In this document: in pieces, positions 7,257 through 11,725 of the stretch
Layout: every line of letters starts with the position of its first letter
Position numbering within the stretch: position 1 is the first letter of the stretch
Assembly (NCBI GenBank): GCA_041395105.1
Contig: JAWLBB010000002.1
Location: 298,104 to 322,103 of the forward strand
Source: Opitutaceae bacterium
Lineage (GTDB): Bacteria > Verrucomicrobiota > Verrucomicrobiia > Opitutales > Opitutaceae
Reading direction: 5' to 3'
DNA length: 24,000 nucleotides
Translations under genes and position numbers: made by a program
The notes under the pieces: generated by a model
Databases searched by the model: none
Told to the model about the DNA's origin: nothing
The model's input: only the letters and a program-made list of their open reading frames with translations

Positions 7257-8246
7257 TCAATCGTTTACCGCGATGAAGGCTCCGCCGTGTTCATAGGTCA
7301 GCTCACGCATGAGGTTGGCGAACTTCAGACCGGTCTGGCCCATTGAAAACGAGTAGCGGATGACGTTGGGAAACCCGATCGCGTTGATTGTGACCGAACG
7401 TTTCCCTTCTTCATCCCTTGGATTGAGGTCATCAATACGCTTCAGCACCGCGTCCGCCGTCCCGGTGAATTCGTCACCGAAGACATAAACGCCCATATTC
7501 ATCTCGGGATCGTCCGGCCGGTTCAGTGTCCGGATAGCCTTGATGATCCCGGGGACCGGATTGCTGTTGCTGAAAACGCCGTAGCGCCGCACCGCCCATT
7601 TGACACGTTCCCGAATCTCCGGGCTGTCGGGAATCCACTCGTTGCCGCCGCCGACCACATTGCGACCATCGGCGTCGAATACCTGGATTCCATTGACCAA
7701 CGGGTAGGATTGGAGAACGTCTTCAATCTTGTTGACCACAATGGGCCACATGTCGCCGGTGTTGGGGTCACGCATACTACCGGAAGTGTCGATGACAAAG
7801 GCGAGGTAGTTGTTCTCGACCGGAACGCCGATCGGGAGATCGGTCTCCTGAGGAAGGTCCACTTCCTTCTGCATGGCGGCGATCTCGGCGAGGATCGACT
7901 CGATATCGACCAGGAGATTCTCCTTGCCCGCCTGGTACTGCTGAAACTGGGCCTCCAGCTTTGCCAGCATGGATTTCATCTCGTCGATCTGGGGAGCAAG
8001 GAATTCCAGACGTTCCTGGTCGGAAATCATCCGCTTGGAGAGCATCTCCCTGGTCGCCCGCAGCTGGGCCAGCAGTGCCATCCGTTGCGCGATGGTCTGC
8101 TCAAGGCTGTCCTTCATACCCTGAAGCACTGGATTCTGTGCTCCCATTGAGATGACAAAGAGCAGGATGATCGCTCCAAACCCGCAGCAGATGCAGTCAA
8201 GGAACGATAGGCTGAAAACCTCCGCAGCGCGTCGTTTCTTTGCCAT
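7257..8246 (-). CDS. TolR/ExbD-like N-terminal anchor + coiled coil + vWA domain with intact MIDAS (329 aa)
   Basis: The N-terminus MAKKRRAAEVFSLSFLDCICCGFGAIILLFVI aligns to TolR EINIVPLLDVLLVLLLIF, with the same Glu-to-Asp spacing of 8. About 100 aa is heptad-rich (LEQTIAQRMALLAQLRATREML...LAKLEAQFQQYQ). The vWA start is LAFVIDTSGSMRD (DxSxS MIDAS). The ATG lies 1 nt after the upstream stop. Confidence 0.7.
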   Translation of the reverse strand: MAKKRRAAEVFSLSFLDCICCGFGAIILLFVISMGAQNPVLQGMKDSLEQTIAQRMALLAQLRATREMLSKRMISDQERLEFLAPQIDEMKSMLAKLEAQFQQYQAGKENLLVDIESILAEIAAMQKEVDLPQETDLPIGVPVENNYLAFVIDTSGSMRDPNTGDMWPIVVNKIEDVLQSYPLVNGIQVFDADGRNVVGGGNEWIPDSPEIRERVKWAVRRYGVFSNSNPVPGIIKAIRTLNRPDDPEMNMGVYVFGDEFTGTADAVLKRIDDLNPRDEEGKRSVTINAIGFPNVIRYSFSMGQTGLKFANLMRELTYEHGGAFIAVND

Positions 8247-8247
8247 T

Positions 8248-9315
8248 TCAGGTGTCGGGCCAGGACCGGGCCGGGCTGACCAGGGCGCCGCGGGTTTCGT
8301 TGGACAATTCCCAGAAGAGCATGGCCGCCGCCGGGTCGCCCGTCATCGGGTAGAGGATGGTGTTGACCGGAATCCGCGGAGGCAGGCGCCGCATGGCCGC
8401 CCGGAACATCCGCTCCCGATCACGATCCGCAACCGACCCCCGGCCCGGATAGGTGTCGCTCAGAGTGGGTAGTCCGTCGACAAAGAGCACGATAGAATCC
8501 GCTGCGTATTTGAAATCTCGAGACACAGTAAAGGCACGCTCGAGATTGGCTCCGCCCTTCGGGACGAGAAGATCGAGTCGCTGGACAACCTCGCCCGAGG
8601 ACTCCCGATCCGCCGGGGCGAGCCATTCTCCATCCCGATCCGGAAGGATAGGCAGGGTCTCCTCGTTGAAGTAGAGTATCTGGTATTTGGTGGCCGCCGG
8701 AAGCGAATTGATCATCCAGAGGATGGAACGGATGACCCGCTGCCATTTCGGTGCCTTGCGCTTTTCATACTCCGGATCGCCCTGACGGGCGATCGCCCCG
8801 TCCACCGTGTCATCGAGCATGCCACCGGAGGCCTCAACCAGAAACAAAACCCGGTCCCCGTTGAGCTTGAATCCTGTCAGATACTGGCGCCGTTCGATGT
8901 TCGGGACGGGAATCGGCGGTGGCTCCTCCACCGTCGGGATGTTCTCCTTTTCCTCCATCCGCTTCTTCAATTCGTCCTCCAGGGTCGATTGCTCCAACAT
9001 GAGAAGGGCAAGGATCTCCTCCCGATTGGCCATCTTCTTCTCGAGTTCGGTCCGGGCGTCCTCCAGCGACTTCACACGACTCGTGTTGTCCGCCGTTGTA
9101 TCCTCCAGCTTCTTGACCGCGTCCTCCTCGATCGTCACTTCCACCGCCATCCGCTGGGCGATGGTCTGAAGATCGCCGATCTCCTTCTCGCTCACATCCG
9201 CCTTCTTTCCGCTGGTGATGACAAAGAGAAGAAGCACCGCGCCAAAGCCGCAGGAAATGCAGTCAAGAAACGACATGCTGAAGACTTCAACCGTTCGCCG
9301 TTTCAGTCGCGACAT
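8248..9315 (-). CDS. Paralogous TolR/ExbD-like anchor + coiled coil + vWA-like domain with degenerate MIDAS (355 aa)
   Basis: The N-terminus MSRLKRRTVEVFSMSFLDCISCGFGAVLLLFVI is nearly identical in pattern to the downstream paralog. Acidic coiled coil. The vWA-like core is VLFLVEASGGMLD (E-x-S-x-G instead of D-x-S-x-S). GGAGG lies 10 nt upstream of the ATG. Confidence 0.65.
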   Translation of the reverse strand: MSRLKRRTVEVFSMSFLDCISCGFGAVLLLFVITSGKKADVSEKEIGDLQTIAQRMAVEVTIEEDAVKKLEDTTADNTSRVKSLEDARTELEKKMANREEILALLMLEQSTLEDELKKRMEEKENIPTVEEPPPIPVPNIERRQYLTGFKLNGDRVLFLVEASGGMLDDTVDGAIARQGDPEYEKRKAPKWQRVIRSILWMINSLPAATKYQILYFNEETLPILPDRDGEWLAPADRESSGEVVQRLDLLVPKGGANLERAFTVSRDFKYAADSIVLFVDGLPTLSDTYPGRGSVADRDRERMFRAAMRRLPPRIPVNTILYPMTGDPAAAMLFWELSNETRGALVSPARSWPDT

Positions 9316-10836: not shown

Positions 10837-10864
10837 GTCATTGATTCCAGACCTTTCCGCCCGA

Positions 10865-11725
10865 TCATTGGGGCAGGGAGAGTCGGCTCTCATCCCGTGA
10901 GGGGATCTTCATCAGACCGACAAGCTTGTCCCGGCAATAGGTGTCAACATCGAGGATGAAACCCTCCTGACGCGACTGAAGCATGTGCATCATGAACATC
11001 AGGACAATGCTCAGAAGGAGCGCGATCAGGGTGGAATTGAAGGCCAGGCCCAGGGCTGAGGTGACTCCGCTGATATCGCCCTCGATCGCCTTGTCGGCCT
11101 GGGCAAGCGCCTCACCGATACCCCGGACCGTCCCGATGAAACCCACCGAAGGGATCGCCCAGGCGATGTAGCGCACCAGGGACAGATCCGACTCCATTTC
11201 TTCCGCCGCCAGTTCCGCCCGTTCCCGTATGGCACTGACCACGTCCTGAATCGATCGAGTCGAATTGAACCGGTGCAAACCGATCAGAACCACCTGGGGC
11301 AGCAGTCGTTCCCGCCACCCTTTTTGACGGTCCAACGACCCGTTCACGTCCTTGTAGTAGTCGAGGGCGTCTTCCGGAATGATCCGTTCGCCCTCCTCGA
11401 TCGGCACGAAATCCACCTTGAGCATCTGCTGTTCGCGGCCCACCAGAAAGAGTTTGTAGCCCAGAATAATCCCCGCCCAGACCATCAGCGTGATACAGAC
11501 CTGCTGTTCGTAGTCCTTCAGAATGATGAAGATCGATCGCTTTGGCGCATAGGTCTCACCTCCGGTGGTCGTCGCCTGAATCCGCTGGCTCAGCGCCTCA
11601 TCAATCACCGCATGCGGTCGAATATAAAGAGAATAGAGCATGGCTACCGAAACGATCGCGAAGACCAGGCCGGCATTCTGAACGATGAAGTTCTGCGAGA
11701 AAATTCCCCTAGTCTTTAGTCCCAT
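10865..11725 (-). CDS. MotA/TolQ/ExbB-family proton-channel protein (286 aa)
   Basis: N-terminal TM, a second TM (ITLMVWAGIILGYKLFLV), a long cytoplasmic insert, then the family-typical C-terminal pair AWAIPSVGFIGTVRGIGEAL and ALGLAFNSTLIALLLSIVLMFMMHML (compare ExbB/TolQ APLLGLLGTVxG ... AxxTTxxGLxVAIP). Confidence 0.75.
   Translation of the reverse strand: MGLKTRGIFSQNFIVQNAGLVFAIVSVAMLYSLYIRPHAVIDEALSQRIQATTTGGETYAPKRSIFIILKDYEQQVCITLMVWAGIILGYKLFLVGREQQMLKVDFVPIEEGERIIPEDALDYYKDVNGSLDRQKGWRERLLPQVVLIGLHRFNSTRSIQDVVSAIRERAELAAEEMESDLSLVRYIAWAIPSVGFIGTVRGIGEALAQADKAIEGDISGVTSALGLAFNSTLIALLLSIVLMFMMHMLQSRQEGFILDVDTYCRDKLVGLMKIPSRDESRLSLPQ

Follow-up and report, generated by a model that had tools for sequence, protein, structure and literature searches.

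Ion motors of the 5:2 type drive flagella, the import of nutrients, the maintenance of the outer membrane, gliding and one system of phage defence; with each new output found for such a motor, new cell-envelope biology has been learnt. A 24-kb stretch of DNA from an Opitutaceae (Verrucomicrobiota) metagenome-assembled genome, hereafter the window, raises the question of whether four adjacent genes, here called A to D, encode a further motor of this kind and what it would act on. Gene A (10865-11725, 286 amino acids (aa)) encodes a channel subunit of the MotA/TolQ/ExbB family, and gene B (9331-10836) a soluble 501-aa protein with the fold of an Hsp70 nucleotide-binding domain (NBD) and a degenerate forkhead-associated (FHA) tail. 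Gene C (8248-9315) encodes a bitopic protein of 355 aa with an Asp in its transmembrane (TM) segment (Asp18), a long helix and one domain of the von Willebrand factor A (vWA) type, and gene D (7257-8246) its 329-aa paralog with TM Asp17, a helical stalk and a vWA domain. All four genes are co-directional on the minus strand with intergenic gaps of 28, 15 and 1 nt, in full agreement with a preliminary description of the window. Our results suggest that the operon probably encodes a motor that belongs to the MotA/TolQ/ExbB class, is of the 5:2 type and is powered by protons (or ions), with a C/D heterodimer as its axle, and which serves as an envelope force transducer; a transducer driven by the proton-motive force is the most likely role.

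Proteins B and C are 100% identical to NCBI R3F07_08115 and R3F07_08110, respectively. The open reading frame (ORF) of gene B runs on to an ATG at 10893, and the start at 10836 was adopted because the 501-aa NCBI protein (P0121) and the homolog alignments begin there. Consensus scans for promoter- or terminator-like sites inside the operon gave none above shuffled expectation. No ExbD, TolR or MotB gene is present in the cluster, and no such Pfam match was obtained among the scanned ORFs of the window.

The assignment of A to the MotA/TolQ/ExbB channels, made in the preliminary description, is borne out by its match to PF01618 (MotA_ExbB) over residues 145-259 (55 bits against a cut-off of 22.9, E=9e-15). 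Weaker matches were also obtained with the tolQ, exbB and ZorA models, and in sequence A is nearer to the TolQ/ExbB models than to MotA. E. coli TolQ was the sole PDB sequence matched by A and its 27-member family profile (E=0.0046), and the alignment passes through the TolQ motifs GTVWGI and IATAIG. Lining up with these motifs are T199 (GTVRGI) and T232 (NST) of A, both invariant in 27 diverse orthologs, which we take to be the equivalents of the TolQ pore threonines T145 and T178. Hydropathy analysis placed hydrophobic segments at residues 13-35, 76-94, ~184-205 and 227-245; the region between the second and third (95-183), a conserved loop of ~90 residues, was taken as cytoplasmic, and the protein ends in a C-terminal tail of 40 residues. 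Protein A, a channel subunit of the TolQ kind in which neither pore threonine is lost, is presumed to form a pentameric ring.

Over the first 55 residues C and D share 62% identity, and both begin with a cluster of Lys and Arg residues followed by one hydrophobic segment (~12-34 in C), which fits an N-in topology. The anchors were compared in 81 loci (39 from Opitutales, 42 from other groups), in which the four genes were located by iterative hidden Markov model (HMM) searches with the window proteins. The presumed ion-coupling residues are encoded at 9262-9264 (Asp18 of C) and 8196-8198 (Asp17 of D), both on the minus strand. D18, C22, G23 and G25 of C are invariant in an alignment of 39 diverse homologs, Asp17 is conserved in D orthologs, and a TM Asp is present in all of the ~150 C/D copies, which carry, across 81 genomes, the anchor motif F-S-L-S-F-L-D-x-(I/M)-x-C-G-F-G-A (core FLDxxxCGxGA). 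The paralogy of C and D and their TM Asp, as originally proposed, are confirmed by these comparisons. A Glu 8 residues before the Asp, which had been read as part of the resemblance to TolR, is not conserved outside Opitutales.

One helical turn past the TM Asp both proteins have an invariant Cys (D-x-x-x-C-G-x-G-A; minus strand, 9250-9264 in C and 8184-8198 in D), and extra Cys residues surround the anchor Asp (LDCICCGFGA). The invariant Cys is a feature not seen in the TolR, ExbD and MotB anchors; packing, ion selectivity or redox are possible roles for it.

Membership of C and D in the ExbD/TolR family was considered and rejected. Neither protein matched PF02472 or OmpA at E<=1, and a 44-column anchor profile run against all PDB sequences found no ExbD, TolR or MotB chain at E<=10, its only match being a chance one to NDUFB4. 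As both the anchor profile and PF02472 detect no kinship, the analogy to TolR is one of position, topology and the TM Asp. The idea of TolR/ExbD-like anchors stands in so far as C and D have a single TM segment of N-in type with an Asp; judged by sequence, they are functional analogues of TolR and ExbD and not members of that family. The underlying logic of one TolQ-like with two TolR-like subunits agrees with the invariance of the pore Thr and TM Asp residues and with the lack of an ExbD, TolR or MotB gene. The pairing of C with D and their order never vary, and the stop codon of the first gene often overlaps the start codon of the second. Such constant pairing and order fit a 1:1 stoichiometry; as a C-like gene invariably stands before its D-like partner, the duplication is ancient and neither copy has been lost.

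Beyond the membrane, the AlphaFold2 model of C (mean predicted local distance difference test (pLDDT) score of 77.6) has a single helix at residues 41-124 and, after a Pro-rich linker, an alpha/beta domain at 155-345, corresponding to a vWA domain of ~150-350; the protein ends in a conserved SP..WP. The best Foldseek matches of this head were all vWA domains, with BatB at the top, followed by Catenulispora vWA, CLCA1 and ITIH (3ibs, 4fx5, 6pyo; E~1e-6). Many C homologs match Pfam VWA_3/VWA_2 (PF13768/PF13519), and the C profile matches the vWA domain of ITIH4. D gave a weak VWA_2 match (17 bits), and its C-terminal domain is homologous to that of C (HHalign 95%, E=4e-8, 173 columns). A coiled coil ending in a vWA domain, as had been read from the window, is thus supported for this pair.

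The two heads are asymmetric in their metal-ion-dependent adhesion site (MIDAS), for which the motif is DxSxS...T...D. The site is complete in D (IDTSGSM ... GDEF), is conserved at >=90% across 74 D orthologs and is whole in D of all lineages. In C it has been lost from this Opitutaceae branch, where the window genome and its relatives have E-A-S-G-G and GGANL (T to A); most C orthologs in other lineages retain DxSxS and GGTN.

A directly relevant account of such genes is given in section 8 and Fig. 4c-d of 'Origin and Evolution of Bacterial Periplasmic Force Transducers' (Mol Biol Evol 2025, PMC12204202). This section describes tolQ-like genes tightly linked to genes for TM-tethered 'transpore-helix-vWA' (TPH-vWA) proteins, 'predominantly in heterologous pairs' and 'predominantly throughout Proteobacteria and Verrucomicrobia', and AlphaFold3 models of a 5:2 complex that put the Asp pair within the Thr ring of the TolQ-like pentamer. 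The description, as given there, is computational, comes with no name or phenotype, and states the function as unknown. The window locus likewise has a tolQ-like gene, no tolR or exbD, a heterologous vWA pair and a TM Asp. Because every feature stated in that section of PMC12204202 is found here, we filed the locus as a TPH-vWA member, by comparison of descriptions. The module had been presented as undescribed, and for the motor class this no longer holds; the Hsp70/FHA partner, in contrast, goes unmentioned in the available text of PMC12204202, as do the small secreted protein and the TPR, PEGA-FGE and M48 neighbours dealt with below. A survey of vWA/Hsp70 conflict systems (eLife 2020, PMC7159879) makes no mention of MotA/ExbB-linked systems. 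What is new here is a conserved cytoplasmic partner and a periplasmic gene set, added to a 5:2 motor class that is experimentally untouched.

The cytoplasmic partner, protein B, has an Hsp70 NBD fold over residues ~1-350, then a linker, and at ~395-495 a degenerate FHA beta-sandwich which stands where the substrate-binding domain of Hsp70 would be. For the comparisons, a profile search for B homologs returned at least 18 proteins, and further orthologs were taken from the neighbouring genes in the 81 loci. The window protein has no Pfam match of its own to either PF00012 or PF00498. A profile of 28 orthologs matched PDB Hsp70 chains at E=2e-9, and Foldseek searches with the AlphaFold2 model (pLDDT 83.6, predicted template-modelling score 0.71) returned DnaK, BiP and Ssz1 at E-values of 1e-19 to 1e-17 (best 2.5e-19), with TM-scores of 0.70-0.77 against NBD-only chains. 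As to the tail, PF00498 is carried by B orthologs (L046, E=4.8e-13; also P0136 and P0286), the ~100 C-terminal residues of Opitutales B align with the proteobacterial FHA tail (HHalign 98.2%, E=4e-14), and the tail of the window model forms beta strands at pLDDT 60-85. The Hsp70 fold noted beforehand is retrieved by profile and structure searches, and the FHA-like tail is supported by its homology to the FHA tails of orthologs.

B is Hsp70-shaped but no canonical Hsp70. The Gly-rich phosphate loops of Hsp70 (DLGTT, DLGGGT) are replaced by LEFNDAG and IELLLHST (family consensus at these positions ELND.G and D..LH), and for this reason B is probably not a normal ATPase. The phosphothreonine (pThr)-binding residues of FHA domains (GR...SxxH...NG) are absent from window B; proteobacterial orthologs keep SR.H and NG, but not the Arg of GR. 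B also evolves fast. In type IV pili, the cytoplasmic ASKHA-fold protein PilM is encoded before two bitopic coiled-coil paralogs, PilN and PilO, and clamps the N-terminal tail of PilN. The gene layout of PilM-PilN-PilO is alike, an architectural analogy: PilM is actin/FtsA-like and not Hsp70-like, a ferredoxin-like domain terminates both PilN and PilO, neither of which has a TM Asp, and no homology was detected.

We then asked how widely the cluster is kept. An exhaustive HMMER search of 1.84 billion cluster representatives gave 1405 relatives of C at E<=1e-3, 170 of them at E<=1e-30. A scan of one genome per species gave at least 596 confirmed motif-bearing stretches and therefore, as C and D both carry the motif, roughly 300 genomes or more. 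Carriers were found in Opitutales, Kiritimatiellia, Gammaproteobacteria (Woeseiaceae, Porticoccaceae, SAR92, Cellvibrionales, Pseudomonadales), Desulfobacterales and relatives (Desulfobacterota), one alphaproteobacterium and a 'Marinacidobacterales' acidobacterial metagenome-assembled genome; the best 80 loci of the species scan contain no Idiomarina. A cultured carrier is Biformimicrobium ophioploci NKW57 (locus L059). The order A-B-C-D occurs in 66 of the 81 loci, and most exceptions end at contig ends. Conservation of this order, in several phyla outside the genome from which it was first proposed, is far beyond chance.

Four loci, all from outside Opitutales (L040, L044, L054, L072), lack B, and A is followed directly by C and D. 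They have in common a C anchor of their own (..VVLLVM.LNG) and, upstream of the TPR gene, one additional conserved gene (fam33, 200-300 aa, with a TM region rich in Gly); on these two features we defined a B-less subtype. It keeps A, C, D, the small secreted protein and the families f3 and f4. Locus L015 is also without B, and its contig ends there.

To describe the linked genes, all ORFs of the 81 loci were clustered into families. Outside Opitutales a single strand carries f3, a tetratricopeptide repeat (TPR) protein, f4, in which three PEGA domains are combined with one FGE-sulfatase domain (E=7e-41), next the gene of a small secreted protein, and then A-B-C-D. Located 3′ of the cluster is either a pair of lipoproteins (f9 and f10) with an M48 peptidase after it, or a lipoprotein of Gly-zipper/OmpA type. 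The small secreted protein (loci L040-L081, among them L080:3540-3815 and L068:3539-3868) has 70-155 aa and a signal peptide, is acidic and of low complexity, and has a near-invariant C-terminus, F.P[ST]E.I..D..[VI].FP.DI. An end of the form P-x-D-[ILV] was found in 39 of 6545 ORF-like segments (at least 60 codons), and 38 of these 39 are the ORF directly upstream of A, a place the gene keeps in the B-less loci too. The protein is a possible ligand of the vWA MIDAS or of the TPR protein. In the window, a gene for a small secreted protein directly upstream of A was looked for and none was found.

In the window the f3 member (3373-5097, plus strand) is a membrane-anchored TPR protein with TPR Pfam matches and a PEGA-like, beta-rich C-terminus. 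It is collinear with a SAR92-cluster ortholog over 381 residues, the PEGA-like C-terminus included (E=2e-24), which makes f3 a partner common to both lineages across phyla; the family is present in 27 of the 42 non-Opitutales and 11 of the 39 Opitutales loci, many of which are incomplete. Next to it lies f12 (5114-5827, plus strand), a secreted low-complexity acidic protein ending GVEQGDAMPSDI, whose family stands beside f3/f8 in Opitutaceae and has a conserved C-terminus, N.GVEKG..P.GL. Its end in the window, ...AMPSDI, recalls the proteobacterial ...FPVDI, a resemblance for which homology is not demonstrated, and f12 may correspond to the small secreted protein of other phyla. The f8 gene (5802-6941, plus strand), convergent with D as is f12, encodes a secreted low-complexity protein that has a folded N-terminal region, a tract rich in G/Q/S and, at its C-terminus, a conserved amphipathic end, ..LLKGLFGL (family ..L..LLK.ILGL); f8 is found directly downstream of D in 15 Opitutales loci. 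Its sole Pfam match, Collagen, was rejected as an artefact of low-complexity composition.

Divergent from A on its other side is f6 (11909-12559, plus strand), a lipoprotein whose lipobox reads LLGTGC and which contains a Gly-zipper and a coiled coil. It is followed by f5 (12612-13388, plus strand), a DUF4136-like lipoprotein (lipobox LFSGC; PF13590 at E=4e-5, below the cut-off). The f6 position is filled, and the f5 position conserved, in at least 20 Opitutales loci. Homology between the Opitutaceae Gly-zipper lipoprotein and the Gly-zipper-OmpA lipoprotein of Woeseiaceae was rejected (E=1.1), and their likeness is architectural. An M48 metallopeptidase, f7 (2326-3135, minus strand; PF01435, E=1.5e-34), is present in 8 Opitutales and 11 other loci; its linkage is weaker than that of f3, and an M48 gene follows the cluster in several proteobacterial lineages. 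Locus L001 has the same neighbourhood arrangement at 50% protein identity.

From these results we propose how the machine may work. The C/D heterodimer would stand in for the usual TolR, ExbD or MotB dimer, with the Asp-bearing helices of C and D inside the A pentamer. Ion passage by way of the Asp residues and the Thr ring would drive relative rotation, and a stalk of ~12 nm would pass torque or tension to two periplasmic vWA heads. The heads could grip periplasmic or outer-membrane-proximal partners through the metal site, whole in D but degenerate in window C; likely partners are those encoded alongside, namely the TPR/PEGA-like protein, the secreted low-complexity proteins, the Gly-zipper lipoproteins and possibly the M48 protease. 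The system would then be a Tol/Ton-like force transducer for maintenance or remodelling of the cell envelope. With TolQ-TolR-TolA and ExbB-ExbD-TonB it has in common the PF01618 channel with two pore Thr, the N-in partner with a TM Asp and the logic of turning proton-motive force into force in the periplasm. Unlike in Tol and Ton, C and D lack the periplasmic domain of ExbD/TolR, the B-type subunits of the motor are two different paralogs, and there is no separate TolA or TonB transducer, the stalk and head being fused to the Asp-bearing helix.

Protein B could act as a cytoplasmic scaffold or regulator docked on loop 95-183 of A, on the A tail, or on the basic tails of C and D. The FHA domain of GltG is predicted to dock on the cytoplasmic face of the TolQ-like AglR pentamer (PMC11761067). 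The existence of a B-less subtype indicates that B is accessory, and since the periplasmic set persists without B and the catalytic and phosphopeptide motifs of B are degenerate, we regard it as a regulator and not as the output.

Several points weigh against this proposal. The assembly is known here from genes and predicted monomer structures, the TM region has low confidence in the AlphaFold2 monomer of C, and the TM helices of A can be counted as 3 or 4. ExbD, TolR and MotB sequences escape the anchor profile, and PF02472 does not match. Client partners were assigned by gene linkage, and the Gly-zipper lipoproteins of the different lineages are not detectably homologous. Finally, as the MIDAS of C is degenerate and the pThr residues of B are lost, some of the canonical activities of these domains may not apply.

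The main alternative is that the complex works in the manner of MotAB, with the vWA heads anchoring C and D to peptidoglycan- or outer-membrane-bound lipoproteins, as the OmpA-like domain of MotB does for the stator, so that the A ring turns and B is the driven or signalling output in the cytoplasm. MotA drives FliG and ZorA signals inward, and MotAB/PomAB have in common with the window system the 5:2 logic, possibly a 4-TM A subunit, and a B-type subunit with a TM Asp and a periplasmic anchoring domain. Such an arrangement would account for B lying between A and C (66 of 81 loci), for the conserved cytoplasmic region of ~90 residues in A, and for the Gly-zipper/OmpA lipoproteins encoded beside the cluster. 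However, the periplasmic gene set is more constant than B, since the B-less subtype retains it along with the motor genes; B is fast-evolving with degenerate ATP and pThr motifs; and no cytoplasmic effector gene is linked; we consider this reading unlikely. The window system differs from MotAB/PomAB in having no OmpA-like peptidoglycan-binding domain, obvious plug helix or flagellar context. Inward signalling is also the essence of a Zorya-like sensor of phage attack or envelope breach, in which the vWA heads would sense the perturbation and B would report it. ZorAB likewise combines a MotAB-like core with long helical elements, FHA is a signalling domain, and A gave weak PADLOC matches to ZorA, which are confined to the shared MotA/ExbB channel core (E=8e-6). 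Yet in Zorya the long tail belongs to ZorA and is cytoplasmic, and neither this tail nor the ZorB peptidoglycan-binding domain nor the ZorC/D effectors are present here; PADLOC searches with B, C, D and the neighbours gave coiled-coil noise and no ZorB, ZorC or ZorD match, and no nuclease or other effector gene is linked. A tblastn comparison with 72,556 plasmids and 50,697 phage records gave no relatives. The locus lies in no defence island and is syntenic with housekeeping genes (CoaB, SMC, lipid synthesis) across Opitutaceae at 50% protein identity, a stable arrangement that is the pattern of vertical inheritance. The PADLOC matches are generic; a defence role is disfavoured, and we give a Zorya-like sensor very little chance.

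The remaining alternatives start from the vWA heads themselves. In a surface adhesion or gliding machine similar to Agl-Glt of Myxococcus, the motor would move a vWA adhesin complex, and the same types of component do recur there: a TolQ-like subunit with two TolR-like ones (AglRQS), the vWA protein CglB, the FHA protein GltG and the TPR protein GltI (PMC11761067, PMC9946355). CglB, however, is a surface lipoprotein of the outer membrane that is not fused to the motor axle, and the FHA domain of the Glt system lies within a TonB-like transducer and not next to an Hsp70-like domain; no Glt homologs were found here. As modelled, the vWA heads of C and D are tied to the inner membrane by the ~12-nm stalk and would not reach the surface. 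This tether and the planktonic marine habit of many hosts (SAR92, Porticoccaceae, Woeseiaceae) make a gliding or adhesion role unlikely, and no outer-membrane barrel, secretin or type IX secretion system genes are linked; we regard such a machine as improbable. Least probable of all is a complex that is no motor, a static membrane vWA assembly in which A would be a structural or ion-leak subunit. Its model is the Bat operon, which encodes two membrane vWA paralogs together with TPR proteins. In Bacteroides these paralogs are membrane-anchored BatA and BatB, and BatB is the closest structural match of the C head. But Bat is coupled to the MoxR AAA+ ATPase and DUF58 and not to an ion channel, has no MotA-like gene, no TM Asp and no long stalk. 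Across phyla neither the TM Asp of the two paralogs nor the two pore Thr of A ever change, as one expects of a working ion pathway, and this constancy is not explained by a static complex.

A wider version of the force-transducer reading is possible, if doubtful: the four genes may be the core of an unrecognised envelope machine of 8-10 genes in at least several hundred species. In such a machine the motor axle would act on the TPR/PEGA protein, the small secreted protein, the PEGA/FGE-sulfatase, the lipoproteins and the M48 protease as its clients, and the Hsp70-shaped FHA protein, devoid of its ATP loops, would gate or read the motor from the cytoplasm. If true, the machine would form a new functional class beside the flagellar, Ton, Tol, gliding/type IX secretion and Zorya motors, and B would be a new kind of cytoplasmic regulator.

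In this family, widespread in marine and soil bacteria, the ion-coupling helix is fused directly to a stalk that bears the force and to a metal-dependent adhesion domain. For experimenters the comparison provides a parts list that consists of the Asp and Thr residues, the D MIDAS, the Hsp70/FHA partner, the peptide of the small secreted protein and the TPR protein.

The rest of the window contains some features of separate note. On the minus strand a PlsC-type acyltransferase gene (13495-14313) overlaps by 4 nt a GNAT gene (14310-15326) of the Acetyltransf_5/FeeM-type N-acyl amino acid synthase kind; the two look like an OlsA/OlsB-type pair for aminolipid (ornithine lipid) synthesis. A 641-aa ORF at 15079-17004 (minus strand) has both a DedA/VTT membrane domain and a region of RimK-like ATP-grasp type, an unusual fusion. 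A SNF2-family helicase of 949 aa (18042-20891, plus strand; SNF2-rel_dom and Helicase_C) has an N-terminal region of ~490 residues that is unannotated. Within 21001-23000 the GC content falls from ~0.65 to ~0.55 right after tRNA-Phe (21075-21150). A radical-SAM/SPASM gene (21319-22620) lies in this low-GC stretch, which is possibly an island that was inserted at tRNA-Phe.

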